The position numbers and the translations under genes were made by a program. Shown in pieces: positions 981-63,560 of a DNA stretch of 64,000 nt. This stretch comes from an uncultured Verrucomicrobiota bacterium (GTDB taxonomy: Bacteria > Verrucomicrobiota > Kiritimatiellia > RZYC01): NCBI GenBank assembly GCA_964490935.1, contig CAZBEO010000001.1, positions 20,742-84,741 of the forward strand, given 5' to 3'. The stretch's first letter is position 1, and each line of letters opens with the position of its first letter. The notes under the pieces are model-generated. The model saw only the letters and a list, made by a program, of their open reading frames with translations, did no database searches and had not been told where the DNA came from.

Positions 981-2279
981 CTAAATAAGCCCAATCACGT
1001 CTTTAATCGGCATGCAAAGCGCATCGGCTTCCCGTGCGCGTCCATGCAATAAAATGCTTTCCGCCGTTTTCTGCATGGCCGGATAGGCACTGCGTAAAAG
1101 CTGATTGGCATAGATCACCACATGCACGCCATGCCTTTCCAGTTCCTCCTCCGTCACCTGCGAATAGGTGCTTGGCACGGCCACCAGCGGAACACGGCGG
1201 GACAGCTTGGCGTACGCCTCACAAAAGGTGAAAAGTTCATCGGGCGTTTTGGCCTTGCTGTGGATCATGATGCCATCGGCCCCGGCTTCTATATAAGCCT
1301 GCACCCGGCTCAGCGCATCGGCCATCCCCGCACCCGTTATCAGACTCTCGCATCGGGCAATGATCATAAAATCATCAGAAATCTGCGACGCCTTCCCGGC
1401 GCGGATTTTTTCCGACATGATCGCCACGTCGGCCTGCTGCTGATTATTTCCAGCATCCAGCAGGGAATTTTTTTTCAGTCCGACCTTATCCTCAATGATC
1501 ACGGCAGAGATACCGAGCCGCTCGAGCGTACGCACCATGAACACAAAGTGCTCCGAAAGTCCTCCGCTGTCGCCATCATAAATAATGGGCTTCGTGGTGA
1601 CCTCAAGGATGTCATTCACCGTATGCAATCGCGAAGTGAGATCCACGCATTCAATATCCGGCTTCCCCTTCAGCGTGGAATCGGTCAGACTGCTCAGCCA
1701 CATGGCATCGAACTCGATGTTTTGAGGACCTCTCTTTACGCGGCAGTTTTCCACAATCAAACCACTGAGACCGCTGTGCGCTTCCAACGCGCGGATAAGT
1801 GGTTTCACCTTCAACAGGCGACGCAGACGCTGCCGCCGAATGTCCGGCGTGACGCCGACTTCGCGAATCGCCTTGTTAAGCTGCGTGGAAGAAATGCCTG
1901 GGGTATAGGAAGGCTCAATGAGTTCGCCCCCCCATTCGGCCAGCGCGTCGATCACGCGTTGGCGCGTCTCGCGCTGCACGCCCTCGCGCCAGTCATCGCC
2001 ATGCACCACGTAGTCGGGTTTTAATTCGCGCAGATTCGGCACATAATCCAGCGTATGCTGAGGCACCACCCGCACCACTCCCTTCAGACTTTCAACCACG
2101 GCGGCCCGCTGTTCATAGATCATGTATGGAAGGCGCTTATAGCTCGCAATGGCTTCATCGGTCAACACCCCCACCGTCACGTCGCCATATTCCGCCGCCA
2201 CCTTCAATATGTTCAAGTGTCCCGGATGAATAATGTCCGCGCTCATACCCACATATACTGTTTTCATAATGGCTGCCAT
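981..2279 (-). CDS. aepX: bifunctional cytidylyltransferase / phosphoenolpyruvate mutase
   Basis: The N-terminus carries the HxGH nucleotidyltransferase motif ([10 protein letters not shown]). The C-terminal ICL/PEPM domain carries the EDK motif ([13 protein letters not shown]) and GDSGG. Confidence 0.75.
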
Positions 2280-2312: not shown

Positions 2313-3494
2313 CTATGGAAACGTGGTCTCCAACTCGCTGAGCAGTTCAATCAATCCGATCACCCGCACGTTTGGTCTTAGCGTATAGCCGCCTTCAACC
2401 ATTGGACACACCACCCAGACCTGTTCCAAATTCAAACTCTCTTTTGTGGCGTTAAATCCTTTTGACAATTTGGGTGACAAGGAGGCTTTGCATTCAAAGC
2501 CGATCCGTCGCTGTCCCTGCTCCAGGATCAGATCAATTTCTTCGCCGGATGAAGTACGATAAAAGGAAGCCCGCCATCGAGGTAACTTCTGCGTGATTTG
2601 CTCTATACAAAGCCCCTCCCAAGAAGCTCCAAACAGTGGATGCGCAAAGAGGTCATCGTAAGAATGAATTTCCTGCAAGGCATGCAGAATGCCCGTGTCA
2701 CGAATATAGAATTTAGGTGCCTTCACAAGGCGTTTTTTCAGATTCAGCTCAAGGGGGGGCAAAACCCGAATCATGAACGTCTGTTCAAGCAGATCAATGT
2801 ATTTAAACACCGTACTGTGCGACCACCCCAACGATTGCCCGATCTTGGAGGCATTCAGAAGCTGTCCGTGGTAATGCGAGATCATTCGCCAGAACCGGAA
2901 AAGCCTGTTCGCAGAGATGGAAAATCCCAGCTCCGGGATGTCTCGACTCATAAAGGTCTGGATAAAATCATCCACCCATTCCCTGCATAAGCTGTCGCTT
3001 CGGGCCAGATAGGCCAGAGGAAATCCTCCCCTCCACCATAGCTTTTTAAATAGAGCCGGTCCCGGCGTCTCCAGATATACTTCTTCCAGCAAAAAGGGTG
3101 TCAATTCCAGATAATGAATACGGCCTGCAAGAGTTTCCTTTCCTTTCCGAATTAGATCCTGAGAAGCTGAGCCAAGTAGTAGAAAACGCCCTGGTCTTCT
3201 ATCCTGATCAACCAGCGCCCGCATCAACGGAAAGAGTGACGGCAACCGTTGGATTTCGTCGATGCAAACCAACTGGTCGGCACGCTCGCCAAGAAAAAGC
3301 TCCGGCTCTTCCAACCGCCTTAAATCAGAGGGCAATTCCAAGTCTAAAAACAGCAGATCATCCCGATCTTTCAACGTTTGATGCACCAACGTTGACTTGC
3401 CACACTGCCGAGGCCCTAAAACAGCCGTAACAGGATGATTGCTAACTGATTGCGCAAGTATATCAACCATATTCCGATGGTATAATGTTTGCAT
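2313..3494 (-). CDS. AAA+ ATPase with DUF4143 domain (COG1373-like)
   Basis: Walker A motif GPRQCGKSTL with a DUF4143-like C-terminal half. ATG start. Confidence 0.7.
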   Translation of the reverse strand: MQTLYHRNMVDILAQSVSNHPVTAVLGPRQCGKSTLVHQTLKDRDDLLFLDLELPSDLRRLEEPELFLGERADQLVCIDEIQRLPSLFPLMRALVDQDRRPGRFLLLGSASQDLIRKGKETLAGRIHYLELTPFLLEEVYLETPGPALFKKLWWRGGFPLAYLARSDSLCREWVDDFIQTFMSRDIPELGFSISANRLFRFWRMISHYHGQLLNASKIGQSLGWSHSTVFKYIDLLEQTFMIRVLPPLELNLKKRLVKAPKFYIRDTGILHALQEIHSYDDLFAHPLFGASWEGLCIEQITQKLPRWRASFYRTSSGEEIDLILEQGQRRIGFECKASLSPKLSKGFNATKESLNLEQVWVVCPMVEGGYTLRPNVRVIGLIELLSELETTFP

Positions 3495-4659: not shown

Positions 4660-5841
4660 TCATTTAAGCCATTCAATGGGATCTGTTTTAAAGAAAACTT
4701 CAAACGGAATGCCCGACGGACCAACGACGACTGCTTTCGCATCGGGATATTCTCGCCGGAAGGCCGAAAGGCCCTGCTGATACCCCGGCCGTCCACTTTT
4801 TACCTCCAGCGCACAAATGGACTCCCCGTTCGATAGCACGTAATCTACTTCGTGCGGCCCTCTTCGCCAATACGTAACCACGCTGTTTGTACCAACGAGA
4901 TAGTTCAGCAAGTGGGCTCCGACGGCGTTCTCAATAAGGCGTCCGCGCCAGGTGGAATCCTGCATAGCCTTCTCACGGCTTTTCATACACAACCCATTGA
5001 TCAGCGCATTATTCCAGAGTACCAGCTTAGGGCTGCTTCCCCGTTTCTTAACATGCCCTTTCGAAAACAATTCCAACCCGCTGACCAGATACGCCCGATC
5101 AAGCAGCGTCAGGTAATGAGCCAGGGTCGTGGTATTGCCTGCATCATTCAACTGTCCGAGCATTTTATTATAGGAGAATAACTGGGCGGGAAAAGCTGCT
5201 GCCAGCCCGAATAGATTTCGCAGCAGGGCGGGTTTGTTGATCGGCTGCATTTGAAGGACGTCTCTCGAGATGGTTGATTCCACCAAGGCATCTCGAACGT
5301 ATTGCTTCCAATCATCCTCATTGTCGACGAACCGGGCCGCACCCGGATAACCGCCGAAAAAGAACCAATCCTCCAGCGACCAACCGAACGCTTCCTGCGT
5401 TTCCGCCCAATCCCAATGTGAAAATCGGTGAAGAAAAAAACGACCAGCCAAACTTTCCGTCAGCCCTTTTTGCAGCAGGAGCGCCGAGGAGCCCAGCAGC
5501 AGGAGCCGAATGTCGGCCTTGCGGCCATCCCAGAAATACTTAATCGCCTCGCTCCAATTCGGGAGCTTTTGCACCTCATCCAGGATCAGCAGCACGGGGG
5601 AGTTGTTTTTTGCACACTCCATTTCGGCCCGCTGCCATTGCGAGCTCAACCACGAATCGGCATCGGAAACCATGTAATCCGCCGTGGCATAGATAGAAGG
5701 ATAGTCCAGTTCGGCGGCAATCTGGCGGGAGGCAGTGGTCTTCCCCACTTGACGGGGACCTGTAATCACTTGAAAAACCGACGGCGTTTCGACCAGTTTA
5801 CGCACAATCGCCGGCACAGAATGTCTTTTTATTTCATTCAT
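4660..5841 (-). CDS. AAA+ ATPase with DUF4143 domain (paralog of 2313..3494)
   Basis: Walker A motif GPRQVGKTT and a LILDEVQK Walker B-like motif. The ORF-track start at 5877 is a TTG, so the internal ATG at 5841 is preferred. Confidence 0.6.
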   Translation of the reverse strand: MNEIKRHSVPAIVRKLVETPSVFQVITGPRQVGKTTASRQIAAELDYPSIYATADYMVSDADSWLSSQWQRAEMECAKNNSPVLLILDEVQKLPNWSEAIKYFWDGRKADIRLLLLGSSALLLQKGLTESLAGRFFLHRFSHWDWAETQEAFGWSLEDWFFFGGYPGAARFVDNEDDWKQYVRDALVESTISRDVLQMQPINKPALLRNLFGLAAAFPAQLFSYNKMLGQLNDAGNTTTLAHYLTLLDRAYLVSGLELFSKGHVKKRGSSPKLVLWNNALINGLCMKSREKAMQDSTWRGRLIENAVGAHLLNYLVGTNSVVTYWRRGPHEVDYVLSNGESICALEVKSGRPGYQQGLSAFRREYPDAKAVVVGPSGIPFEVFFKTDPIEWLK

Positions 5842-6008
5842 AGAGAAAGAGTAACCAATCATACTCAATGACTGCAAGATTATTGCTCAATGGAGAAGGC
5901 CCCGGCAGGATAAGCAGGAGGAAAATCCGGTCCATCCCCTTCATCCCGTCTAAAATTATTGGTTACGACTATACTGCTCCAGTCTCTAGGCGCACCATGG
6001 GCACCCCC

Positions 6009-18991: not shown

Positions 18992-21900
18992 ATGCAAAAA
19001 ATATGGCGGTATGTGCAAAAAAGTGTGAAGCGGTATCGTTATGTGTCGCCTCTTGTGATGGGTTTTGTTTTTGGTTTATGCCGCATGGCCGCCGCGGCAC
19101 TCCCCGCAGATTTTCCTGCCATCACGGTGCCGGTATGCAGTGCTCCGTCCGAAGGCGATATCTTTCTGAGCAATTTCACGCAGGATTCGGATGTAAGTAC
19201 GACCCCGTATCTAATCATACTGAACAACGCAGGGGAGCCGATTGAATACCGAAGGCTGGACAGTCCGGTTAATACGGATTTCAAACGGCAGCCCAGCGGA
19301 GCAACCACGTATTTTCAACTGATGGATACCAACACCCTGGGAACCAATAAGTTTGCGTTCCACTTTGTGGATCGAAACCTGAATTCCACGGGAACCATCT
19401 CGGCGGTTACCACCGGCTTAATCACTGCGCTGACAGCGGAATGGATGACGGATGTTCACGAACTCCGTATGCAGGATAATGGACACGGCTACCTGCTGGC
19501 GTATCGTTTGACTCCCACCAACATGCTTTCTTATGGAGGAAAACTCAACGCGTTTGCCATCGACATGGCTATCCAGGAGGTGGATGCCGCCGGCAATCTT
19601 TACTGGCAATGGTCGCCTGAGAACTTCTTTACCCATCAAAACACCACGCCCGATGTGCCGCTGACCAACCGGATCGTTGATTATGCCCATTGCAATGCCG
19701 TTGATATCGATACAGACGGCCATATACTGCTTTCCACGCGCTACTTTGATGAAATTACCAAGATCAACCGGCAGACGGGTGAAATCATCTGGCGCATGGG
19801 GGGGAGTGCCTGCAGCAACAACCAGTTTACCTTTATCAATGATGATCAGCCGCAGGACGGGGGCGGCACCTTCACCGGGTTTTCCCACCAGCACGGGGTC
19901 CGCCGTCTTGCCAACGGAAACATCCTGCTCTTTGATAACGGCCACCTGAAGAACCCACCCTATTCGCGTGCGGTGGAGTATGCTGTAAACGAAGGGACGC
20001 TTACCGCCGAGAAGGTCTGGTCCTATACCCATTCTCCGCCGATTTCATCCACGGAGATGGGGTTTGCTCAGCGTCTGGCCAATGGCAATACTTTCATCTG
20101 CTGGGGCGGAAGTACCAGTCAGGTTGCCATTACCGAAGTGACGGCACAAAGCAACGTGGTCTTTGAGCTGACGCTGCCCGAAGGCGTGCACACCTACCGC
20201 GCGTTTAAACAATCCTGGACCACGAATATCTCCCCCACGAACACCTTTCTGCCGCCGCCGTATCGTCCGGATGGATGGCCCGCTCAGCACATGGGCGCGC
20301 ACAATTCCGACTGGGTGCCCCGCGAGATGCTGGACCTGCAGCAGACGAATGAAATGGCGAACGTACGGTTCATGTTGCGTGACCCGGCCAATCCGGTGGT
20401 CTGTGCCGGTGGAGGGGTGATTGTGGTATTGGACGGAAAGGAATATTTTATTGTCACGACCAGCTCGGTTAAATATCCCAATCTGTGCGCCCTGGATATG
20501 ACCGACGGGAGCGTCTACTGGCAATCCGCCCCGCTGACCAATGCCCCGTTTGGACAGTCTGCTCCCGGACCCGATTCCTGCGCCTCCACCGTGGCGCCCA
20601 TCGCCGATAAATATGGCAACATTTATCTGGCGGACTGTCATTATGTGTATTGTTACCGCATCGAAGCCCTCCCTGATGCGAGCGGGTATCAGCCGTGGAT
20701 ATGGCGTCAGCCCATGCCCAACCTGAAAATCTACAGCGATGTAGACGGCCTGTGGCACCCATCGAGTGATCCAACGGCGGCTGATACAAAGGGTTTCCCG
20801 TTTATGTCGTTTGTGCTTACCCCTGAAGTAGACGAAAACTATTACGTGGGCGGGTTTACGGTGCAGGGAGAAACCTTCATGTTTGATCACATCGACGGCA
20901 CCCTGGCGGGCGCGACGTATCTGGAAACCAACATGATCGGCACCGTCTCCAATCAGCCGCCCTGTGATCCGTACCTGTTTGCCGAAACCAACAATCCGAT
21001 GATTATGAGTTCAAACAATCCCATTCTGTTCGGCATCTGGGCAACCGGCATTACCAACACGGTGGATCCGGACCTGAAATATTTTATGAATCCCTGTCAG
21101 TTGAAGGGATATATGGAGGCCGGAACCTTCGGCATCGGAGCCATGGTGGCCAACAACCCCTGTATGATGAAAAATCCTACCAATCCGGCGGCCTGCCGTC
21201 TGTTTGTTGCGGGCGGGCAGTCCGAATATCTTAAGCAGTGGGATGTGGATACCAATACGCCCGATGTCATCATGTATGCCGTTGATTTTGATCCGACCGC
21301 CTCGTATTCCGGGCGGCTGGCCGTCTGCAACTACGACATCACAAACTACGTCGACTCCACGCCGCAGTTTGCCTTTAACGGGAGAATGGTTGACGGAGAG
21401 AGTTCCGCCACATCGCCCGACCTTTCCTATAACGAAAAGTGGCTTTTCTGCAGTGATAAAGCCGGGTCAAACTACTGCTTCGATACCCGGTCCGGCACCA
21501 CCGTCTGGTCCTACGACACCGGGGAGGCGCTGGGTTCTCCGACCACCTTTCAGAACGAAGACGAAGACGGCAACTTTCTATATATGACCATGGCCGGTTA
21601 TGATCCGTGGGCCTTCATGATCAACGCGGAAACCGGGCAGATTGCCTCCAACGAAACCTACGGACTGCTGGTGCGCAAACTTCCGCTTTCGCTCTATGTC
21701 CAAAGAAACTGCTGGCGCACGAATGAAGCCTATCAGCAGGTGTTTCAAAACACCGAAGGCTTTTTCACAAAGAACGCCATAGGCTCTTCGATCATATCCG
21801 GATGCAGTAACCGGGTCGAAATGATCTTCACCGTTGGATGGAAATATCCCATTCATATGCCTCCTGCGCTTGCGAATATGGCCACCATCCCGACCCATCA

Positions 21901-22429
21901 GCAGGTCGTATATCTGGACGTTGATAAACTGTGGAACAGCACCAACATGGCCGACCTTATTGCGGCGACCTACATGGACACCAACGGCACCAGTGAAGCC
22001 GGCTTTATTCCCAGTCCTTTAGGTAATCAGCGCGGAATTATGTTCTATATTTCTCAATCCTGCTGCATGGCCCAGTTCATGGATGTGAACAGTGCCGAAG
22101 GGCGGTTTGATTCGGGGCTGTATGCCTACCTGTATATGCCCGAAGACATGCGCTCACTGTATATGAAACCCTATGGCGGGCTCGGGCTGTTTAAGATTCC
22201 CTACGTCCCCGATTTTGCTGTTACGTCCATCGAACAGACCAACCAGAATCTCGCCTTGCAGTGGGATGCCAACCCCCCGGATGGAACGTTCACCGTGCAG
22301 TCCACGGATAATCTCATCCTGCCCGATTGGCAGCCGGCCGAACCAACGAACTTCTGGCCCTTTGCCGGGACCGTTTGGACGACCCAGTGCAGCAGCCCGC
22401 TGTTTTACCGGTTGATACTGGAACCCTGA
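18992..22429 (+). CDS. large secreted protein: arylsulfotransferase (ASST)-like N-terminal beta-propeller plus C-terminal PQQ-like repeat region
   Basis: ASST-like motifs HCNAVDIDTDGHILLSTRYFDEITKINRQTGEIIW and HQHGVRRLANGNILLFDNG. Later repeats (SVYWQS, TTVWSYDTGEALGSP). AAGGAG RBS. Confidence 0.55.
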   Translation: MQKIWRYVQKSVKRYRYVSPLVMGFVFGLCRMAAAALPADFPAITVPVCSAPSEGDIFLSNFTQDSDVSTTPYLIILNNAGEPIEYRRLDSPVNTDFKRQPSGATTYFQLMDTNTLGTNKFAFHFVDRNLNSTGTISAVTTGLITALTAEWMTDVHELRMQDNGHGYLLAYRLTPTNMLSYGGKLNAFAIDMAIQEVDAAGNLYWQWSPENFFTHQNTTPDVPLTNRIVDYAHCNAVDIDTDGHILLSTRYFDEITKINRQTGEIIWRMGGSACSNNQFTFINDDQPQDGGGTFTGFSHQHGVRRLANGNILLFDNGHLKNPPYSRAVEYAVNEGTLTAEKVWSYTHSPPISSTEMGFAQRLANGNTFICWGGSTSQVAITEVTAQSNVVFELTLPEGVHTYRAFKQSWTTNISPTNTFLPPPYRPDGWPAQHMGAHNSDWVPREMLDLQQTNEMANVRFMLRDPANPVVCAGGGVIVVLDGKEYFIVTTSSVKYPNLCALDMTDGSVYWQSAPLTNAPFGQSAPGPDSCASTVAPIADKYGNIYLADCHYVYCYRIEALPDASGYQPWIWRQPMPNLKIYSDVDGLWHPSSDPTAADTKGFPFMSFVLTPEVDENYYVGGFTVQGETFMFDHIDGTLAGATYLETNMIGTVSNQPPCDPYLFAETNNPMIMSSNNPILFGIWATGITNTVDPDLKYFMNPCQLKGYMEAGTFGIGAMVANNPCMMKNPTNPAACRLFVAGGQSEYLKQWDVDTNTPDVIMYAVDFDPTASYSGRLAVCNYDITNYVDSTPQFAFNGRMVDGESSATSPDLSYNEKWLFCSDKAGSNYCFDTRSGTTVWSYDTGEALGSPTTFQNEDEDGNFLYMTMAGYDPWAFMINAETGQIASNETYGLLVRKLPLSLYVQRNCWRTNEAYQQVFQNTEGFFTKNAIGSSIISGCSNRVEMIFTVGWKYPIHMPPALANMATIPTHQQVVYLDVDKLWNSTNMADLIAATYMDTNGTSEAGFIPSPLGNQRGIMFYISQSCCMAQFMDVNSAEGRFDSGLYAYLYMPEDMRSLYMKPYGGLGLFKIPYVPDFAVTSIEQTNQNLALQWDANPPDGTFTVQSTDNLILPDWQPAEPTNFWPFAGTVWTTQCSSPLFYRLILEP

Positions 22430-23343
22430 CCCCGAAGGTGGAAGCGCTCGATGAGGGCGGCGCGTTCCTCTTCGTTGCTTCGCTCATATTCCGCCTGCGC
22501 ATATTCGTAGAACCGCCCGTCGGGAGGGCGGACGAAAAGGAGCTGTTCGCGTATCCAGTCAAGGGCGCGGGCGAGGGCTTCGGGCGCGAGGGGCGGGGCT
22601 TCGGAATCGAGGCGGTCGGTCCGCACCATCGTCTCTTCACCCAAGGCCTGGGTGAACGCTTCCACGGCGGCCTCATCCGATGGGCGTTCGATGAGGCAAA
22701 GCAGAAGGTCCGGTCGTTTCGCCAAAGGCGCGAGGCTGCCGCTCTGGCCGGAGACGGCGTCGCCAATCCAAGCGGCGAAGGCGGGACGCGGGGACGCAAA
22801 GACGGCGCCGATTTCCGCGCCGGTTCCATACCCCGCGAGAAGTTGTACGCCGGGCAGGATGCGGCAGTCTTTCATCGCGGCACGATAGGTGCAGAGGAGC
22901 GCAGCGAGTACTTTTTCTTCCGGGAGCGAGGGCGGCAGATTGGGTGCCAGCAGTATCCAGCCGCGTGCGCAAAAGACCTCGGCAAGAGCCTCCTGCTGCT
23001 CCGTTTCGAGGTGCGCGGAAACGACAGCCAGCGGGTAACGCTGCGAGGGATGCGCGTCGTAGTCGGCGGGCAGATACAAATCATAGGCGTAGGTTCCCCG
23101 ACGCAGAAGCAACACCCGCTCGCCGATAAAGAAGGGATCGTCGGCTGGAAAATACGTTTCGGCGTGCTGGTTCGTCCAGCAGGGAGCGAGCGAGGCAGGT
23201 GGCGGTGCAGGCGCGGCCAAAACCGTCGCACCGGCACAGATTAAGAGGAACAGCAACCCCAGTCCGAGTGAGTTATCACCCCGGACGGGGTGAAGGCCTA
23301 TAGCCCAGGGTCGGCAGACCCTGGGTTTCTCATTCTCCAACAT
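22405..23343 (-). CDS. putative secreted alpha/beta-hydrolase-fold protein (start uncertain)
   Basis: Signal-peptide-like LGLGLLFLLICAGATVLAAPA followed by a ~280 aa hydrolase-like body. The in-frame ATG at 23343 lies inside a repeat element; an alternative TTG lies near 23256. The long ORF-track extension runs across repeats. Confidence 0.4.
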   Translation of the reverse strand: MLENEKPRVCRPWAIGLHPVRGDNSLGLGLLFLLICAGATVLAAPAPPPASLAPCWTNQHAETYFPADDPFFIGERVLLLRRGTYAYDLYLPADYDAHPSQRYPLAVVSAHLETEQQEALAEVFCARGWILLAPNLPPSLPEEKVLAALLCTYRAAMKDCRILPGVQLLAGYGTGAEIGAVFASPRPAFAAWIGDAVSGQSGSLAPLAKRPDLLLCLIERPSDEAAVEAFTQALGEETMVRTDRLDSEAPPLAPEALARALDWIREQLLFVRPPDGRFYEYAQAEYERSNEEERAALIERFHLRGQGSSINR

Positions 23344-23366
23344 CCCATGCACCCCGGATGGGGTGC
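23262..23366. repeat. ~100-bp MITE-like dispersed repeat, copy A (inverted relative to copy B at 50794..50890)
   Basis: The reverse complement aligns nearly base-for-base with 50794..50890. It ends in a GCACCCC-N4-GGGGTGC hairpin followed by T8 (23371..23380). Confidence 0.55.
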
Positions 23367-23462
23367 GTGTTGTTTTTTTTGTCGGCTTCCCGGGGTCCGA
23401 TGACCCCGTGCCTTTCTCCCCGGCCCCTCCGGGGCCATCATGACGCTGACTTTTGTCGGTAT

Positions 23463-23560
23463 TTCCAACGATTGGAAAAAACGTCTGAAATAGTGCCAAC
23501 GATTGGAAAAACCGTAGCTGCACAGCAGTCCCGCCCACGCGGGATTTCCAATGGTTGGAA
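23463..23560. promoter_or_regulatory. three palindromic TTCCAA-N3-TTGGAA(AAAA) sites (23463..23477, 23495..23508, 23546..23560)
   Basis: Seen directly in the sequence, in the region upstream of the hydrolase gene and downstream of the giant gene. Each site is followed by an A-run. Preceded by the 13-nt GACTTTTGTCGGT, which is shared with the 50896 locus. Confidence 0.35.
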
Positions 23561-23604
23561 AAAACGATTTGAGCGGTTTTTGGCGTGCCGGGTTTCATGG
23601 TGGA

Positions 23605-26600
23605 TCAGGGTATCGAAACTCGGGTGCGGATGTAAAGGGTGCCGTGATTGGTGACGGGTATTTGGATGGCCCCGCCGGTGCCCGGGATGTTGGTCTGGAC
23701 CGCATTCCACTGAGGCGTGGTTAGGTTGGTGGTGGAGTAGATGTGATAGATGCGGTCGGACGCGGTGAAGAAGGTGACGTAGTCCTGCGAGGAGGAGGCG
23801 ACGGGGTTGACGGCAAAGAGCGAGGCGGGATCGGTGGGATCGGTGTGGGCGGTATATTCATCGCGATTGGACATGCCGTCGCCATCGGTATCGTCGTCAG
23901 ACTGGGCCGCGGTGGGGCTGGCGAAGTAGGTGTTTTCCCAGGTGTCGGGAAGTCCGTCGGAATCAGCATCGCCGGTGCAGCCGGTGATTGTCTGGGCGGT
24001 GTTAAGCGATCCACGTGTGGCGTCGGTGGCTGCAGCCCAAGTGAAATCGGCGTAGGTTGTTCCGGCTCCGGAAAGCTGGAGCGAGCGTCCGAGGGCGAGG
24101 GTGGTGGATTCGCTCACGCCGATGTCGGTGGAAAGCGTGCCGACGGCGAGGTTGTTGGCGGCGGTAAAGACCCCTTCATAACTCAGGAACTGAATGACGG
24201 CGGAGTCGGAGCGGCGAACGAGTGCGAGACCGTCGGGTGAGCCGTTTTGCAGGCCGGGCATATCGAACCAGAGGGTGCCAAAGCCGCATCCTTCGTCGGG
24301 CAGGAGGCCGGAAAGGGAGATCGCGCCGGCGTAGGCTTCTCCGTTATAGCCGTTGTAAGGAATGAGGGTGTAGTTGGTAAGGCTGATCCCGGCGGGACCG
24401 GCGATTTCAACGCCTTCATTGGTGTCACCACCGTCGTTATCATAATGGATTTCATTGATCCAAACGGAAGCGGACTCGGCAATACGCAGGGTCACGTCTT
24501 CGAAGTCGACCCCATCATCGCCAACGGCATAGAAGGTGCAGGTGTAGATGCCTACCGGTTGTGCCTGAGCCCAAGTGAAGGTTCCGGAGCCGTTCGTGGA
24601 GCCGAACGTTGCTCCGGATGGAGCGTTGCTGACGGAGAGCGTGATGGGTTCATTGTCGGGATCGGTGGCGGTGACGGCGAAGGAGAGTGAGCTGCCTTGC
24701 AGGGCCGTTTTCCCGCCGATAGCGGTAAGGACCGGCGGATTCGTGTTGCCGATGCGTACTTCCAGGGTGATGGTTTCGGAGTCGGTGAGGCGTCCATCGG
24801 TGGCATAGAAGGTGCAGGTGTAGACGCCGAGAGGATTCGGAGTGAGCCACTCGAACGTATCGCTGAGGAAGGTGGATCCCGCAGGGGCGTTGCTGACGGA
24901 ATAGGTGATGGCGTCGCCATTGTAGTCGGTGGCGTGGACCGTGAAATTCAGGGAGTTGCTCTCGATGACCGATTGGTTACCGATGGGGTTCAGCACGGGC
25001 GGCAGGTTGGTTTCGCCGTTGCAGGGATAAATGAGTTGATGTTCGTTGAGCCACCCGGGCGTGGCGGAATTGGTGGGGTTCGACCAGATGAATTCCATGT
25101 AGTTGGTGCCGAGGCCGCTGAGTTGGAGCGAGTTGCCGATGGGCGTGGTGTCGTTGGATTCACGCACGACGACATCCAGGGAATACTCGCCTGCGGCGGG
25201 ACCGTTGATGGCCAGGAAGGTGGGGCTGTAGCTGAGCAGCACAACGAGGTTCGTCCAATCACGAACCAGGGCGATGCCGCCGGTCTGCTGAAGGATTTTG
25301 GTGAATGGGACGGCGCCGTAGCCGCACCCTTCATCCGGGAGGACGCCGCTCAGCGCGTTGCTGGCATAGACGGAGCCATCGGTGCGGTAATAAAAGAGGG
25401 CGTAATAGGCTAGGTCCAACCCGGCGGTTCCGGCGATTTCCACGAACTCGCCGGTGTCGGTTCCATCGTTGTCGTAATGGAATTCGTTGATCCAGAGATC
25501 GCCTTCGGCAAGCACCTCGATGGTGATGGCCTCTGAGTCGATGCCGTCGTTGTCCACAGCTTGGAAGGTGGTGGTGTAGACACCACATACGGCGGTGTTG
25601 GACCAAGTGAAGACGCCGGTGTCGTCCAGCGAAACAAACGTGGCGCTTGGCGGTAGGTCGAAGGCCGAGAGGGTGATGGATTCCTCATCCGGGTCGACGG
25701 CAGTCACGGAAAATTGCAGGGTTTGATTCTGGATGACATGCCGGTTTCCAATGGGCTGAAGCACGGGCGCATTGGTGGCGGGGCTGACGGTGATCTTCAC
25801 GGAATCACTGTCGGCGCCATCGGTGTCGGTGGCGTAGAATACACACGTGTAGGCCCCCGCGGGTGCGGCATTGCTCCAGGTGAACAGGCCGAGTCCCGCC
25901 TCAGCGGAAAAATTCGCACCGGCGGGCAGATTGCTCACGGTCATGGTAATGGCATCGCCATCGGCATCGGTGGCGGCAACTTCAAAGGAGAGGGTGAGCC
26001 CTGTGGTGATGATCTTGTCGGCCACGTTCTGAATGACCGGCGCCTGCGCGCCGGAGGCCACCGTGATGATGACGGTTTCCGTGCCTGCACCATCATTATC
26101 TACGGCATAGAAGGTGGTGGTGTAGACGCCGGCCGGCACCGCCGAAGCCCAAGAGAACGTGCCGGTGGCTCCACTCGAATTGAACGTGGAGCCGGGTGGC
26201 GCATTGCTGACGCTTAGCGTGATTACATCGCCATTGACATCCACGGCGGTGATTGTGAATTCCAGCGCATTGCTTTGCACGACAATGGGATTACGGATCG
26301 GATAAATGGCAGGAGGTTGCTCTCCGGCGTCGGCGCTGGGGTACATACGCTGAAGTTCATTCAGCAGGCCGTGCGATGCAGCCAAGCCGTTATCCTGCCA
26401 GATAAAATCAGCATACGCGGTGCCCAAGCCGGTGAGCTGAAGCGAGCAGCCCGTCTCTGCGCCGGACTCGGACCCAATGTTCTCGGAGGATTCTTCGGCG
26501 GCTGGCCCAGTCACGCCCACCATGACGCCTTCGTAACTGATAAACTGCACGAGGTTCGTTTCATCCATGACCAGCGCGATGCCTTCCGTTTCGTTCTGCA

Positions 26601-29031
26601 GCCCGCTGATGGGCACCCAGACCGCGCCAAAGCCGCTGCCTTCATCCGGGATGGTACCAACGAGCGCAACGGATTTGTAGGCCGTGCCGTCGCCGCCGTT
26701 GTAGGCGAGCACCGAGTAATAGGAAAGTTCCACGCCGGCGGTTCCGGCGATTTCCACGCCTTCATCGGCATCCGTGCCTGCGTTGTCGTAATGGAGTTCA
26801 TTGATCCAGACCGTGCCATCCACCAGCACACGAATGGTGGCCGTGCGCGATTCCGTACCATCGGCATCCGTCGCCTGGAACGCACACGCATACACCCCGG
26901 CGGGCCCGGCGTTCGGCCATGAAAAACTTCCCTGCTCATTGGTGGAGGCAAAGAAGGCACCGGCAGGAAGGTTGGTGCAGGAGAGCGTGGCTGTGTCGCC
27001 ATCGGTGAGTTTGGCGTGTACGGAAAATTCGAGGGTTTGCCCTTCGGTCACGCGCTGGAGGGGGATGGCATCGAGCGAGGGCGGCGTGCGCCCGAGACTG
27101 AAAGATTTCATCACGGCCATGTGCGCATTTCCTATGGAGTCCGAATCGCTGTTCAGCACGGGCGAAGGCGGGGGCGGATTCGTCCAGAGGCGCGTATCGA
27201 AAACGAGCCCGTCGTGGAAGTCAACGCCCTGCACGGTCGTGCGGTAGTGATTTTCTTCGAGGTTGCGGCTGGGCAACACGTAGTCGAATGGGTACTCCCG
27301 GTTTCGGCTTGTTTCCGTGACCCCATATTGATCGGTGGGCTTGCGGGCATCGCTAACGACGTTGGTCAGAATCGCCAGGCAGGGCTCGGCACGCGACGCG
27401 GTGTTCAGGTCGCCGGCGATAACCAGATAATCGTTGGTCGGAAAATTCGCCAGAGCGATGTAGTTGGTCAGCAGGCGTGCCTCGGCGGCGCGATCCTCTT
27501 CGGTTCCAGAATAATAGATATGCAGACTGACCACGTGCAGATCGCGGTCGCCGGGGATATCAATGGTGGCCCAGGCGATATCGCGGTTCGCCGTGATCGG
27601 ATCGGCCCATTCCCCCGCGGCGGTGATGGGCCAGCGGCTGATAATGGCGTTGGGCTGCGGAAAATAGGCGCTGGATTGTGGTTCGATGTAATAATAATAC
27701 TCCGTGCCGAAAAAGACATCGACGAATTCGCGCATCGTGCTGTTCGTGATGTTACACTCTTGTAACCCGACAATATCCGGCTTCAGGGCGTGAAAGATGC
27801 GGTACGCCGGCTCCTTGTAGACCGAAGGAAAGCCATCAACCAAGTTGGCGGCCATGATGGAGATCGTTTCGTTGTCGCGGATCGAGAGCGTATGCGTGGC
27901 GGGCTCTCCGATCGTTGCCCCCTCCGCCCCATCCAGCGTCAGTGCGAGCGTTTCCACGCTTTCCATGTTGTCATCATCGGCAATCACCACGGAAATCATC
28001 TGCTGCGTTTCGCCGCCCGCCGTGAACACCAGCGAGGTGGGCGACACCGTGTAGTCCACCCCCGCCGAGGCCGTCCCGCCCGCATCGCCGATCCACACCG
28101 TCACATCCGCCGAACGCGAAAGAACCACGGCTACCTGCTGCGTACCGACATCCTCGTCCACCAGCGCATCCGCATAGGCGAAACAAACGGAGGGCGGTTC
28201 CGCCACCGTCAGGTTGACTTCGTCCAGGCTGTACCCATCCTTATCCGACGCATAAAACTGCATCGTTTGGACGCCGACGGGCGTCGCGCCCGCCCAGCGA
28301 AACGTCCCGTGCTCATTGGTCGAGACAAACGTCGAACCCGAGGGCGCGTTGCTCACCGACAGCGTCACCGGATCGCCATCCGTGGGCGTGGCAAACACGC
28401 TAAACTCGATCGTATCGCCCAGGGTGACGGTTCGGCTGGGAATGGCCTGTAACACGGGCGGCGTGTTGGCCGCTGCGCCATCATAATAATACAGCTCCAC
28501 GAATTCATAAAAAAAGTTGGCGGCATCCGAATATTCCGTAATCACCAGCACCGAGGTCTCGTCGGTTCCGACGCCCCCGACGCCCGGGGTCGCATCCGCC
28601 ATGCCCAGGGTACTCCAGTTGGTGACGGCATCGCCGCCCACCGAGGCATTCAGGCGCTGGATCGAGTTCCTTTTCGGATCACGCGACAAGGGCGTCGGGC
28701 CATCCAGCACCACCGAAGAGGCGTCCAGCAGGGAAAACTGTTCGCCGCCATCAATCACCGGCAACTGATTTTCCGCATTGAGGTAGAGCACTTCATCGCC
28801 CAGTGTGACCCCCCAGTACGCTTCAAAGTCGGCGCGGGAACCGTAACGACCAACAATCAGGTATTCACCCGGCTCGATCGTCGTTCCATCGGGCAGCGTA
28901 TACGTCTTGCTCCTGTTGGTTTGCTTGACCTTGTACCCCGAAACATCCAGGGCCGACGCCGTAACCACCAACGAGAGCCCCAGCAACATGGCGCACCACA
29001 GCTTAAAATATCCCGAGCTTCTGCATCCCAT
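23605..29031 (-). CDS. giant secreted multidomain protein (1808 aa): lamin-tail domains x4, Ig-like (He_PIG-type) repeats x~7, Calx-beta, endonuclease/exonuclease/phosphatase (EEP) domain, C-terminal Ca-binding Asp-rich module
   Basis: LTD motifs (WINELHYDNAGTDADEGVEIAG, LWINEFHYDNDGTDTGEFVEIAG, VWINEIHYDNDGGDTNEGVEIAG). EEP motifs (LQEC...AGDLNTASR...FDYVLP). Calx-beta (VDYTVSPTSL...SIRDNE). Signal peptide. ATG with an AAGGA RBS. Confidence 0.7.
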   Translation of the reverse strand: MGCRSSGYFKLWCAMLLGLSLVVTASALDVSGYKVKQTNRSKTYTLPDGTTIEPGEYLIVGRYGSRADFEAYWGVTLGDEVLYLNAENQLPVIDGGEQFSLLDASSVVLDGPTPLSRDPKRNSIQRLNASVGGDAVTNWSTLGMADATPGVGGVGTDETSVLVITEYSDAANFFYEFVELYYYDGAAANTPPVLQAIPSRTVTLGDTIEFSVFATPTDGDPVTLSVSNAPSGSTFVSTNEHGTFRWAGATPVGVQTMQFYASDKDGYSLDEVNLTVAEPPSVCFAYADALVDEDVGTQQVAVVLSRSADVTVWIGDAGGTASAGVDYTVSPTSLVFTAGGETQQMISVVIADDDNMESVETLALTLDGAEGATIGEPATHTLSIRDNETISIMAANLVDGFPSVYKEPAYRIFHALKPDIVGLQECNITNSTMREFVDVFFGTEYYYYIEPQSSAYFPQPNAIISRWPITAAGEWADPITANRDIAWATIDIPGDRDLHVVSLHIYYSGTEEDRAAEARLLTNYIALANFPTNDYLVIAGDLNTASRAEPCLAILTNVVSDARKPTDQYGVTETSRNREYPFDYVLPSRNLEENHYRTTVQGVDFHDGLVFDTRLWTNPPPPSPVLNSDSDSIGNAHMAVMKSFSLGRTPPSLDAIPLQRVTEGQTLEFSVHAKLTDGDTATLSCTNLPAGAFFASTNEQGSFSWPNAGPAGVYACAFQATDADGTESRTATIRVLVDGTVWINELHYDNAGTDADEGVEIAGTAGVELSYYSVLAYNGGDGTAYKSVALVGTIPDEGSGFGAVWVPISGLQNETEGIALVMDETNLVQFISYEGVMVGVTGPAAEESSENIGSESGAETGCSLQLTGLGTAYADFIWQDNGLAASHGLLNELQRMYPSADAGEQPPAIYPIRNPIVVQSNALEFTITAVDVNGDVITLSVSNAPPGSTFNSSGATGTFSWASAVPAGVYTTTFYAVDNDGAGTETVIITVASGAQAPVIQNVADKIITTGLTLSFEVAATDADGDAITMTVSNLPAGANFSAEAGLGLFTWSNAAPAGAYTCVFYATDTDGADSDSVKITVSPATNAPVLQPIGNRHVIQNQTLQFSVTAVDPDEESITLSAFDLPPSATFVSLDDTGVFTWSNTAVCGVYTTTFQAVDNDGIDSEAITIEVLAEGDLWINEFHYDNDGTDTGEFVEIAGTAGLDLAYYALFYYRTDGSVYASNALSGVLPDEGCGYGAVPFTKILQQTGGIALVRDWTNLVVLLSYSPTFLAINGPAAGEYSLDVVVRESNDTTPIGNSLQLSGLGTNYMEFIWSNPTNSATPGWLNEHQLIYPCNGETNLPPVLNPIGNQSVIESNSLNFTVHATDYNGDAITYSVSNAPAGSTFLSDTFEWLTPNPLGVYTCTFYATDGRLTDSETITLEVRIGNTNPPVLTAIGGKTALQGSSLSFAVTATDPDNEPITLSVSNAPSGATFGSTNGSGTFTWAQAQPVGIYTCTFYAVGDDGVDFEDVTLRIAESASVWINEIHYDNDGGDTNEGVEIAGPAGISLTNYTLIPYNGYNGEAYAGAISLSGLLPDEGCGFGTLWFDMPGLQNGSPDGLALVRRSDSAVIQFLSYEGVFTAANNLAVGTLSTDIGVSESTTLALGRSLQLSGAGTTYADFTWAAATDATRGSLNTAQTITGCTGDADSDGLPDTWENTYFASPTAAQSDDDTDGDGMSNRDEYTAHTDPTDPASLFAVNPVASSSQDYVTFFTASDRIYHIYSTTNLTTPQWNAVQTNIPGTGGAIQIPVTNHGTLYIRTRVSIP

Positions 29032-60710: not shown

Positions 60711-63560
60711 TTAATTCACCGGTTCGGCCTGCCCAAATCCCCAAGGCTGGGTGCGCGGGGTTTGGGTGGCGCTTTGCCAGATATACCATAGGCCGAGTTC
60801 AGGCGCATAGACGGTGCGATCGTATTTCCCGTCGCCATCGAAATCCGCCGGGACGGCATACGCGTCACTCCAGCCCCAATACTCGCTGCTCGTGGTCTGC
60901 GTGGCCGAGAGCCAGGCGCGCCACAAGCCGGTTTCCGGCGCGTAGACGGCCACATCGGCAAGACCGTCACCATCGTAATCGCCCGGCATGGCAACCGCCT
61001 GGTTGTTACCCCATGCCTGCGAACGTCCGGTTTGGGTGGCGCTCTGCCAGATCAGCCACGTACCGCTTTCCGGTACGTAGACGGCGATGTCCGTGAGTCC
61101 ATCGCCATCGTAATCGTCCGGCACGGGTCCGGCTTCATTCCAGCCCCAAGCCTGCACGCGCATCGTCTGGGTGGCGCTCTGCCAGATCAACCATGTGCCG
61201 CTTTCCGGGACATACACGGCAATGTCCGTAATACCGTCGCCATCATAATCGCCCGGCACGGGGAACGCCTCGGCCCATCCCCAAGCCTGTACGCGCGCGG
61301 TCTGCGTCGCGCTCTGCCAGATTAGCCAGGTGCCGCTTTCCGGCGCATACACGGCCACGTCATAGAGGCCATCGCCATCGAAGTCGCCCGTCACCGGATA
61401 GGCATCGCTCCAGCCCCATGCCTGGAAGCGTCCGGTCTGTGAGCTGGATTGCAGGATGCTCCACGCGCCGCCTTCTGCGTAGTAGACGGCGATATCGGCG
61501 ATGGTGTCGCCATCGTAATCGAGATAAGCGGCAGGCATCCGCATCGAAGCCTCTATGGAGGCGTCGCCGTTGTCCGCTCCATAGAATGCGCGGACCGTGT
61601 AGTAGAACGTCTGACTGTTCGTGAGGGAGGTATCGGTCCAGGAGGAGGCACCCTGAGCGGCCTCGCCCACGAATACGCCTGTCCCGCCCGGTGTGGCCGA
61701 GCGATAGATCAGGAAGCCCTTTTCGCCGCCGATCGGGGCCCAGCCGATGCGTATCGCGCGTCCCGCGCGCGTGGTCGTCAAATTCGTCAGCGCCAGGGGA
61801 TATTCATAAGCGCCCATATCCACGGCGGCACCAATGATACGACTGTTTCCGAATACATCGTTGGTACTGGCCATCCAGCTTTCGTTGGTTCCCGCATTGA
61901 TGCAGGGGGATTCGATCTGAAGCCTTGGATCGGAGTCACTCACGAATAGCGGATCGTTGGTGATGCAATGCACAAAATCCACCTGACTCGGACGAGTGCA
62001 GCAGTAGGCCATATCCACGGCGGCGCCTTCGAAGGCGTACTCGGAAACCCCCTCGTCGTCGACATTGCCGTAGATGATGGAGTTACGGATGACGGCATCC
62101 GCTCCCACGTAAAGTCCGGCATTGGTGGTTGCCGAATTGAAGGCCACCGTGCAACTGAGAAGAGAGGCTTGGGTTTCCCCTTCCTCCGAAGGAACGATGG
62201 CCACACCACCGGCCTGACCCTCGGCTTGGTTATCGGTAATGAGCGTATTTCGGACTTCAGCATCGCCTTCCAATTGAACGCCGCCGACGTCGCCCTCGCT
62301 ATAGTTTTCAACGACATAGCTGTTGATCATCCGCCCGCCGTTCACCCAAACGCCGCCGACTTTTCCGGTATGGACCACGCTGTCTACCGTTTCGCTGGTG
62401 GCTTGGTTGAAGACCATGTAGCAGGTGTCAAGGAGCCCATAGCCCTGCACATACGCGCCTCCCGCAGAGTTGGCCGTGTTAAGTAGAAGATAGGTGTTGC
62501 GCAGGATTCCCCCATCGGCGAGAAACACCCCTCCGGCGCGACCATACGGCTCCACCCCGAAGGCATAATTTCCATAGATAAAGCATTGTTGGAGCAGTCC
62601 GCCACCGTTGAGCCACGCGCCGCCGCCGGAAAGCGCCGTCCCTTGGAACAGGATGCTGCCGTTCAGCGTGCCACCGTGCTCGAAGTAAGCACCGGCGCCA
62701 CGGCGGGCGGTGTTTCCGTATACCGAGCATTCCTCGGACGTTCCATCCTGATTGAAATACAATCCGCCGCCGTCTCCAAGCGCGATGTTTTCGTGCAGAT
62801 CGCAATCGCTCGCGAGGGCGCTGTTTTCCAGGCCGAGGCCGGCGGCATCTCCATCGGATTCGTTGCCGATAAACTCGCAACGGCTGATACGCGAAGAACC
62901 TGCCGCGCGACCTCCGGCATAGGACCCCGCCCGGTTACTGATGATGCTGGCATCGGTCAGCAAGGCCTTTCCGCCCATGTTGACGCCGCCGTACCTATTG
63001 GACGCCGTGTTTCCGGAAATAGTCACATTACTGACGGTTCCGGCGAGCAATTCGAGCCCCGCGGAATAATAGTCGGCGCCGCCGGTCAGCGTGAAGGTGT
63101 GCACGAAGGCATTGCTGTGATCCACGTTCATCACGCGACAAACACCTTGTCCATTCAGGATCACATTTTCCTTGGCAGGCACGCCGTTCAGGGTCATCCG
63201 TTTGAGGACGGTCACCGGCGCGGTCAGGTTGTAGGTTCCGGGGCCGACCAGCGTGGTACCGCCCACGGCGCAGGCGTCAATCGCGTCTTGGACGTTGGTG
63301 GCGGCATCAAACCAGTTCGTGAACGGAGTAACATGCAGTCCGCTCGGTGAGACGTAATTGATAAAGCCCGACTCCACCACCCGTACGGTGCCGTGGCGGA
63401 GGCCACACCGCCCAGATTCGAGGCCGTCAGCACCACCGGATAGAGACCCGGCGCACTCCAAGAAGCCGTGATGAAGGTTTGGTCGGTGTAGGTATTCGTG
63501 ACGCCCACCCCGGTAACAGTCCAAACCAGACTGGCAGGCTTGCCGAACAGGGAAGCCCAC
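60711..63560 (-). CDS. C-terminal ~890 aa of a giant secreted protein: right-handed beta-helix region, FN3 domain, six FG-GAP-like repeats (frame A downstream of a frameshift)
   Basis: Beta-helix repeats with NxxGGG-type turns. FN3 segment (GWAPIGGEKGFLIYRSATPGG...FYYTVRAFYG). Repeats of the form GDYDGDGxxDxAVY...WxxWQSATQT. The first ~55 residues of this ORF look non-native. Confidence 0.6.
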   Translation of the reverse strand: MGFPVRQACQSGLDCYRGGRHEYLHRPNLHHGFLECAGSLSGGADGLESGRCGLRHGTVRVVESGFINYVSPSGLHVTPFTNWFDAATNVQDAIDACAVGGTTLVGPGTYNLTAPVTVLKRMTLNGVPAKENVILNGQGVCRVMNVDHSNAFVHTFTLTGGADYYSAGLELLAGTVSNVTISGNTASNRYGGVNMGGKALLTDASIISNRAGSYAGGRAAGSSRISRCEFIGNESDGDAAGLGLENSALASDCDLHENIALGDGGGLYFNQDGTSEECSVYGNTARRGAGAYFEHGGTLNGSILFQGTALSGGGAWLNGGGLLQQCFIYGNYAFGVEPYGRAGGVFLADGGILRNTYLLLNTANSAGGAYVQGYGLLDTCYMVFNQATSETVDSVVHTGKVGGVWVNGGRMINSYVVENYSEGDVGGVQLEGDAEVRNTLITDNQAEGQAGGVAIVPSEEGETQASLLSCTVAFNSATTNAGLYVGADAVIRNSIIYGNVDDEGVSEYAFEGAAVDMAYCCTRPSQVDFVHCITNDPLFVSDSDPRLQIESPCINAGTNESWMASTNDVFGNSRIIGAAVDMGAYEYPLALTNLTTTRAGRAIRIGWAPIGGEKGFLIYRSATPGGTGVFVGEAAQGASSWTDTSLTNSQTFYYTVRAFYGADNGDASIEASMRMPAAYLDYDGDTIADIAVYYAEGGAWSILQSSSQTGRFQAWGWSDAYPVTGDFDGDGLYDVAVYAPESGTWLIWQSATQTARVQAWGWAEAFPVPGDYDGDGITDIAVYVPESGTWLIWQSATQTMRVQAWGWNEAGPVPDDYDGDGLTDIAVYVPESGTWLIWQSATQTGRSQAWGNNQAVAMPGDYDGDGLADVAVYAPETGLWRAWLSATQTTSSEYWGWSDAYAVPADFDGDGKYDRTVYAPELGLWYIWQSATQTPRTQPWGFGQAEPVN

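Follow-up and report, generated by a model that had tools for sequence, protein, structure and literature searches.

An 1808-aa protein encoded by an uncultured Verrucomicrobiota bacterium raises the question of which substrate an endonuclease/exonuclease/phosphatase (EEP) domain serves when it is carried on a scaffold of lamin tail domains (LTDs) and immunoglobulin-like (Ig-like) repeats. The gene is located at 23605..29031, on the minus strand, of a 64,000-nt stretch (positions 20,742 to 84,741 of contig CAZBEO010000001.1, assembly GCA_964490935.1), hereafter called the window. We consider it about an even bet (probability roughly 0.5) that the product is a secreted phosphodiesterase on an LTD/Ig stalk, with nucleic acid as the likeliest substrate. 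In this reading, the protein would be a Sec-exported, very acidic exoenzyme of ~188 kDa, probably Ca2+-binding, of Kiritimatiellota (Planctomycetes-Verrucomicrobia-Chlamydiae (PVC) superphylum). It would have one catalytic head near the N-terminus, formed by a Calx-beta–EEP cassette with a complete metal-dependent phosphoesterase active site. Behind the head, seven Ig-like spacers would make up an extended stalk; three beta-sandwich modules of the LTD superfamily would break up this row, and a fourth LTD, which is circularly permuted, would occupy the tip. The stalk would finish with a pair of Ca-binding TSP3 repeats and a C-terminal domain (CTD) of 72 aa, common to many secreted enzymes of the lineage, whose probable role is in export or in keeping the protein at the cell surface. 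The EEP head would cleave phosphodiester bonds in an extracellular polymer, most probably extracellular DNA or RNA, with the LTD modules holding the enzyme on the substrate or matrix.

Domain organization and conservation of the giant protein

The open reading frame (ORF) runs from ATG to a stop codon at 23605-23607, as originally proposed, and an AAGGA sequence is found ~11 nt 5' of the ATG. The mass of ~188 kDa is computed for the mature protein, as is its isoelectric point of ~4.05. The N-terminus (residues 1-27, 28951..29031, minus strand like all features of this protein) reads as a Sec-type signal peptide, MGCRSSGYFKLWCAMLLGLSLVVTASA followed by LD, with predicted cleavage after TASA. 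The same MGCR start is present in the orthologue from 'Kiritimatiellae bacterium isolate STF2_14' (L006), the closest genome match, which shows 85% identity in the best tblastn segment and 64-93% by domain. In L006 the longest ORF starts 102 codons upstream of this conserved start (2695..3000), and an automatic gene call would probably add a spurious N-terminal extension, hiding the signal peptide.

The domains were mapped with hidden Markov models (HMMs) built from orthologue alignments. Their order is signal peptide, LTD, Ig-like repeat, Calx-beta, EEP, Ig-like repeat, LTD-like module, three Ig-like repeats, LTD-like module, two Ig-like repeats, LTD-like module, two TSP3 repeats and the 72-aa CTD. 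Non-catalytic beta-sandwich repeats account for ~85% of the length, and predicted models show the EEP fold and point to beta-sandwich folds. The initial annotation, made from the sequence alone, described a secreted multi-domain protein of LTD, Ig-like, Calx-beta, EEP and Ca-binding parts, and this composition is borne out by Pfam and by the signal peptide. Twelve orthologues at 48-85% identity, among them ten full-length ones (48-54%) and L006, keep the domain order LTD-Ig-Calx-EEP-Ig-L3-3 Ig-L3-(1 to 3) Ig-L3-CTD, where L3 denotes an LTD-like module with the WINExHYDN motif. All orthologues come from metagenome-assembled genomes (MAGs) of Kiritimatiellota/'Verrucomicrobiota', and the named relatives all belong to Kiritimatiellia.

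The EEP catalytic head

The EEP domain (residues 388-646, 27094..27870) was initially described as central but lies in the N-terminal third of the protein. It is joined directly to the preceding Calx-beta domain (residues 278-387, 27871..28200), which matches Pfam PF03160 at residues 279-387 with 46.1 bits (cut-off 27, E 5.7e-12) over profile positions 5-118 of 119. Calx-beta is directly followed by EEP in many other architectures as well. Pfam Exo_endo_phos (PF03372) matches residues 412-592 of the whole protein with 44.7 bits and the isolated domain with 48.7 bits (cut-off 24.5). The eight core residues of the EEP domain are N396, E425, H504, D541, N543, D583, D612 and H637. Loss of the catalytic residues had been named as the sign of a purely structural adhesin; all eight are present and are invariant both in the 11 orthologues (~50% identity) and in a 71-sequence family alignment, which consists mostly of stand-alone secreted EEP proteins of ~280 aa. 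Thus, the domain is probably an active metal-dependent phosphoesterase. EEP enzymes usually have an SDH motif at the catalytic histidine. The residue before H637 is alanine in the window protein and in three orthologues, aspartate in seven, and glutamine in the wider family. The presence of glutamine there indicates that an SDH-type aspartate is not required in this subfamily, and for the same reason the alanine was dropped as a mark of an inactive enzyme.

An AlphaFold2 model of the domain, with a predicted local distance difference test (pLDDT) score of 92, confirms the EEP fold, a four-layer alpha/beta sandwich. Foldseek returned 201 matches in the PDB at E<=0.001, and all 50 of the 50 matches listed have the EEP fold, mostly characterised enzymes together with a few uncharacterised family members. 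Bacillus cereus sphingomyelinase (SMase), Staphylococcus aureus beta-toxin, DNase1L3, DNase I, nocturnin and TDP2 were all found at E 1e-11 to 1e-9 with template modelling (TM) scores of 0.55-0.67.

The stand-alone homologues appear to represent the true subfamily of the catalytic head, judging by sequence. They are found in Verrucomicrobiota, Lentisphaerota and other phyla, are 40-53% identical to the window protein over the whole EEP domain and share its invariant residues. They differ from it in lacking the Calx-beta, LTD, Ig-like and C-terminal modules, and are annotated just as 'endonuclease/exonuclease/phosphatase family protein'. Their mean net charge is +0.4, versus -16 for the EEP domain of the window protein. 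Genomic neighbourhoods of two such homologues had nothing informative in common. Three proteins of 2000-2750 aa (P0040, P0041, P0042) combine an EEP domain of this subfamily with fn3 repeats and with N-terminal domains of purple acid phosphatases (PF16656); in P0041 and P0042, Calx-beta directly precedes EEP. Phosphate scavenging would fit these three proteins, since a diesterase and a monoesterase are then found on one polypeptide.

LTD-type modules

As noticed initially, the protein has three copies of the motif [WF]INE[LFI]HYDN and no more; they start at residues 742, 1180 and 1524. It marks LTD-like modules A (WINELHYDN; residues 738-900, 26332..26820), B (WINEFHYDN; residues 1176-1340, 25012..25506) and C (WINEIHYDN; residues 1520-1685, 23977..24474). 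The initial annotation counted four lamin-tail domains and regarded failure of LTD HMMs to match as evidence against them. The whole protein matches Pfam LTD (PF00932) with 56.7 bits (cut-off 34.3), the best stretch being residues 25-90, that is, in the N-terminal domain, which lacks the motif. Scanned singly, modules A, B and C do fall below the same cut-off (13.1, 17.5 and 17.6 bits, respectively), covering profile positions 4-51 only (6-51 in module A), and when the PDB was searched with the single sequence of module B, nothing but a chance match to a ribosomal entry came up. Nevertheless, the LTD assignment is recovered at the level of the family. Module B as a query returned 62 homologues, mostly stand-alone proteins of 200-270 aa from many phyla, and in the alignment of 56 of these homologues with the three window copies, 42 of 59 members match Pfam LTD at E<=0.01 (best 9.5e-16). 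Modules A and C match the family HMM at E 8e-70 and E 3e-66, respectively. When the family profile was searched exhaustively, 9018 cluster representatives matched at E<=0.001, and single proteins carry as many as 8 copies. In a sample of 46 multi-copy proteins from this search, 37 match Pfam LTD at E<=1e-5 (best 1.7e-38). Thus, family-level sequence evidence suggests that the WINExHYDN modules are an enlarged LTD subtype of ~165 aa.

The subtype has an invariant stretch, N-E-x-H-Y-D-N-x-G-x-D-x-x-E, which may be a loop that binds a metal or another ligand. Among the 46 multi-copy proteins, Pfam detects no catalytic domains other than Exo_endo_phos PF03372 (16 proteins), Endonuclease I (3) and Exo_endo_phos_3 PF19580 (1); type IX secretion system (T9SS) tails occur in 8 of the 46. 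Endonuclease I is also fused to the WINExHYDN LTD in single-module proteins, and in P0056 and P0043 the subtype is found N-terminal to an ExeM/NucH-like nuclease domain (153 and 174 bits, cut-off 300). These catalytic partners provide the best argument, albeit an indirect one, for a nucleic-acid or phosphoester substrate.

Stand-alone WINExHYDN proteins (P0192-P0253) come from Bacteroidota, Planctomycetota, Acidobacteriota and Proteobacteria. Sorting tags among them include PEP-CTERM (13), VPDSG-CTERM (4), IPTL-CTERM (1) and a T9SS tail (1), suggesting that the module also works alone as a surface protein. Papers on DUF4876/BT_1938, a putative lid of a TonB-dependent transporter, were of no help here, and a literature search for COG3568/ElsH found plant papers only.

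The N-terminal LTD (residues 28-186, 28474..28950) is of another type than modules A-C. Scanned alone in its native order, it reaches 32.7 bits over profile positions 36-101, just below the Pfam cut-off; with the whole-protein scan included, its match is confined to positions 32-101. It ends in VLVITEY..FVELYY (residues ~159-186), resembling the start of an LTD. When the last ~28 residues are put first, the score rises from 32.7 to 38.7 bits and profile positions 7-101 are matched in one stretch; in two orthologues the same rearrangement raises the score from 32.6 to 44.6 bits and from 26.6 to 36.7 bits. In an hhalign comparison of 35 instances of this domain with the 59-sequence WINExHYDN alignment, the permuted order gave E 9e-5, with the alignment crossing the artificial junction, versus E 0.095 for the native order. 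An earlier version of this test with shallow, 11-sequence alignments was not significant in either order. The N-terminal LTD thus appears to be circularly permuted. As a 157-aa unit it is also found in an amidohydrolase and among S8 peptidases and purple acid phosphatases.

The C-terminal end

The C-terminal Asp-rich Ca-binding module proposed earlier corresponds to two bacterial TSP3 repeats (residues 1686-1736, 23824..23976), matched in two stretches by TSP3_bac PF18884 with 37.5 bits (cut-off 25, E 2.1e-9); in the scan of the whole protein, TSP3_bac matches residues 1714-1735. The last 72 residues (1737-1808, 23608..23823) match no Pfam or NCBIfam family at E<=10 and, with a net charge of +1, make up the one domain that is not acidic. 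We built an HMM of this CTD from the orthologues and scanned 71 proteins. In 31 of the 71, among them the 11 full-length relatives, the match stops no more than 6 residues short of the C-terminus. Proteins that end in the CTD (within P0016-P0051) come from Kiritimatiellota and related MAGs; they include Calx-beta proteins, EEP proteins and proteins with a different catalytic head, for example S8 peptidases. This behaviour is typical of sorting or anchoring domains, for which the CTD is a candidate.

Substrate of the catalytic head and alternative explanations

The combination of LTD and EEP was initially compared with the extracellular nuclease ExeM. The co-occurrence of the two domains stands. 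Like ExeM of Shewanella oneidensis, Xds of Vibrio cholerae and NucH, the window protein has an LTD and an EEP-superfamily domain, and it would share their Sec export. It may also resemble ExeM and Xds in their Ca2+/Mg2+-type metal dependence and in staying cell-associated (PMC6085458, PMC6746945). The two architectures also differ. The EEP domain is 259 aa here versus ~370 aa in ExeM. ExeM has one LTD and the window protein four LTD-type modules and seven Ig-like repeats. The window protein has neither a GlyGly-CTERM nor a transmembrane anchor and ends in the TSP3 repeats and the unnamed CTD. Between the N-terminal LTD and EEP it has an Ig-like repeat and Calx-beta, where ExeM has an OB-fold (YhcR-like) region, which is essential for activity in both ExeM and Xds (PMC6085458, PMC6746945). 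By its sequence, the window protein is not an ExeM/NucH family member. Multi-copy LTD proteins with EEP or Endonuclease I, found in Bacteroidota and others, carry 2-8 copies of the same WINExHYDN subtype; in many of them the spacers are of the Ig, cadherin-like or HYR type, and a sorting tag follows at the C-terminus. However, their EEP domains mostly belong to other subfamilies, and they have T9SS or PEP-CTERM tails instead of TSP3 repeats and the CTD. The lamin tail domain itself (PF00932; lamin B1 Ig-like domain, PDB 7dtg) is also among the closest known systems. No paper on Kiritimatiellota nucleases was found.

Several observations weigh against a nuclease on a substrate-holding stalk. 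Neither NF033681 (ExeM/NucH) nor NF033680 (ExeM-GG) matches the 1808-aa protein at E<=1; the OB-fold part of ExeM is not matched by NF033680, and the Pfam scan found no OB-fold family. Sequence databases name the EEP subfamily only generically, and it is uncharacterised. When the 71-sequence profile was compared with PDB sequences, the best matches were sphingomyelinase C (1.8e-7) and beta-hemolysin (to 2.6e-5), followed by nSMase2 and the DNA-end phosphodiesterase TDP2 at ~5e-3; no DNase I or ExoIII-type nuclease was found at E 0.01. Foldseek does not separate SMases, DNases, nocturnin and TDP2. The alanine before the catalytic histidine departs from the SDH motif. As to the stalk, modules A-C are strongly acidic (net -13 to -22, with 2-4 basic residues each), as are their stand-alone homologues (mean -12), which argues against direct binding of the DNA backbone; for this reason we give less weight to the idea that these modules bind DNA directly. 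ExeM and Xds, the only nucleases with an LTD for which this has been tested, remain active when it is removed, and Xds does not need it for membrane association either (PMC6085458, PMC6746945). Only 6 of the 148 top multi-copy WINExHYDN proteins match an HMM of this EEP subfamily. The scaffold is not specific to nucleases, since in Kiritimatiellota these LTD and C-terminal modules are also carried by S8 peptidases and a GH18-containing protein. Finally, the genomic neighbourhoods in the window and in two orthologues give no functional hint. Since the ExeM/NucH models do not match and the closest solved relatives are sphingomyelinase C and beta-toxin, the nuclease label is one that we infer; from the sequence, a nuclease function of the head is plausible.

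The observations on the scaffold bear on a broader explanation, which we entertain tentatively. The permuted LTD, the WINExHYDN LTDs, the Ig-like repeats, the TSP3 repeats and the 72-aa CTD may form a common exoenzyme display kit of Kiritimatiellota and their PVC relatives, serving heads as different as EEP, S8 peptidase, GH18 and purple acid phosphatase. In that case, the CTD would be the mark of a pathway for secretion or attachment that has so far escaped recognition, and the permuted LTD would extend the lamin-tail fold by a new structural form. The EEP domain would then represent a phosphodiesterase subfamily that is still uncharacterised and that might act on substrates other than DNA.

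The ranking of solved relatives raises the question whether the head is instead a sphingomyelinase C- or phospholipase C-like lipid phosphodiesterase, acting on sphingophospholipid or related head groups of neighbouring cells or detritus. By profile, the nearest solved structures (2ddr, 2uyr, 7cne, 1zwx, 3i5v) are sphingomyelinase C of B. cereus, Streptomyces and Listeria and beta-hemolysin of S. aureus, ahead of any nuclease. A single-sequence phmmer search gives the same order, and SMase and beta-toxin take the top Foldseek ranks. Like the window domain, these enzymes are secreted, have a compact EEP fold and use Glu / His / Asp-x-Asn / His as catalytic residues. Nevertheless, we consider a lipid substrate unlikely. 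Identity to the window domain is 14-17%, and the profile alignment spans only the central third of the domain, ~90-120 residues around H504 and the GDxN motif, which are common to all EEP enzymes. In Foldseek, DNase I, DNase1L3, nocturnin and TDP2 match with the same or better E and TM (TM 0.63-0.67 versus ~0.59 for SMase). SMase has a hydrophobic membrane-insertion hairpin before the catalytic histidine. In the window protein the corresponding loop is Pro/Ser/Asp-rich (TNPPPPSPVLNSDSDS), and no such hairpin is evident before the last histidine. Moreover, the sphingomyelinases are single-domain toxins as opposed to the 1800-aa scaffold here, and the LTD subtype fused to this head otherwise accompanies nucleases.

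Kiritimatiellota are known mainly as glycan degraders, and the enzyme could be part of their polysaccharide degradation, with phosphoglycans, phosphorylated capsules, teichoic-acid-like polymers or other extracellular glycopolymers being cut at their phosphodiester bonds and the LTD and Ig-like modules binding glycans; we regard this as a rather improbable explanation, below the lipid one. Least probable of all is a mainly structural surface fibril or adhesin with EEP as a binding module or relic, which the large non-catalytic share of the length, the Ca-binding TSP3 and Calx-beta modules typical of adhesins and the replacement of the SDH aspartate by alanine would favour, but which is at odds with the invariance of the eight core residues in the orthologues and family members, with the position of EEP as joint best-conserved domain relative to L006 (93% identity, equal with module A), and with the glutamine of the wider family, which makes the aspartate no family requirement.

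A secreted phosphodiesterase acting most probably on nucleic acid would be of interest because such enzymes control the recycling of phosphorus and carbon from extracellular DNA and phosphodiester polymers in sediments and guts. The protein is an ordinary, well-built member of a widespread architecture class, a variation on a common theme that does not overturn current knowledge. What it adds is an LTD that appears to be permuted, a conserved Calx-beta–EEP cassette, a shared CTD and an uncharacterised EEP subfamily. Three of its features offer handles for further work. The first is the compact EEP subfamily, with hundreds of stand-alone homologues, whose closest solved relatives are sphingomyelinases and not DNases. 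The second is the very large LTD subfamily with an invariant polar loop, whose catalytic partners in the scanned sample are only nucleic-acid or phosphoester hydrolases; this contrasts with the dispensable LTDs of ExeM and Xds. The third is the candidate C-terminal sorting domain.

Ig-like repeats and size variation

The seven Ig-like repeats were found by repeat comparison, a custom Ig HMM and Pfam. Repeat 1 (residues 187-277, 28201..28473) carries the motif LSVSNAPSGSTF and matches the custom HMM and Pfam Big_9 family; repeat 2 (residues 647-737, 26821..27093) contains the best Big_9 stretch, at residues 660-734. Repeats 3-5 (residues 901-1175, 25507..26331) lie between modules A and B, and were delimited by repeat comparison and the custom HMM. 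Repeats 6-7 (residues 1341-1519, 24475..25011) lie between modules B and C. The repeats had been assigned to the He_PIG type. Their Ig-like nature holds, but He_PIG (PF05345) has no match to the 1808-aa protein at E<=0.01 in the Pfam scan, in which Big_9 is best (78.2 bits), with further matches to Big_13 and PKD_4. PF05345 is recorded for some orthologues, which places the repeats in the same Ig-like group as He_PIG.

The initial annotation also pointed to DNA-level repeats that could drive recombinational size variation. Such repeats are present within the gene but are weak: 60-76% identical over up to 134 nt, with a longest exact direct repeat of 24 nt, and Tandem Repeats Finder found no tandem array in the gene. 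Compared with one another, the repeats within the gene are 63-75% identical in DNA, and the seven Ig-like repeats are 40-52% identical in protein. Between orthologues, repeats in equivalent positions are 58% alike, versus 50% for different positions within one protein, suggesting that the array is old and that each copy is constrained separately; the sequences show no sign of concerted evolution. Size variation does occur. The number of Ig-like repeats between modules B and C is 1, 2 or 3 among the orthologues, and the rest of the array is constant, so that repeats 6-7 are the sole block of variable copy number. In L006, an in-register deletion of 88 aa fuses repeats 6 and 7 into one hybrid repeat, leaving one repeat fewer, and two orthologues (P0002 and P0003) have three repeats there, one more than the window protein. 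Unequal recombination has thus occurred, but rarely, and the DNA repeats are too far diverged to count as a recombination substrate today.

Genomic neighbourhood

The giant gene is surrounded in the window by flagellar, chemotaxis, chaperone, sugar and nucleotide-sugar genes, that is, housekeeping or unrelated functions. Its neighbours are not conserved among the orthologues, with the exception of one downstream ORF (22405..23598, minus strand). This ORF lies directly downstream of the giant gene, has no Pfam family, and its real start is probably near M86, followed by a hydrophobic signal-like segment. Homologues are located directly downstream of the giant orthologue in L006 (70% identity), L013 (48%) and L002 (25%, E 2e-13), with a weak one in L009; none was found in L001, L007, L008 and L010. 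It may be a partner gene of the giant protein. Converging on this gene pair is an ORF of 1145 aa (18992..22429, plus strand) that matches arylsulfotransferase (ASST) at E 5e-27 and, weakly, PQQ_2/BamB-like (beta-propeller) repeats.

Elsewhere in the window, the gene at 981..2279 (minus strand) encodes a phosphoenolpyruvate phosphomutase fused to a cytidylyltransferase-like domain, which points to the synthesis of phosphonate-decorated lipids or glycans. Two paralogous genes for AAA_14 + DUF4143 ATPases are found near each other at 2313..3494 and 4660..5877 (both minus strand). Another large, probably secreted protein, of 949 aa with FG-GAP repeats and a right-handed beta-helix, is encoded at 60711..63560 (minus strand).

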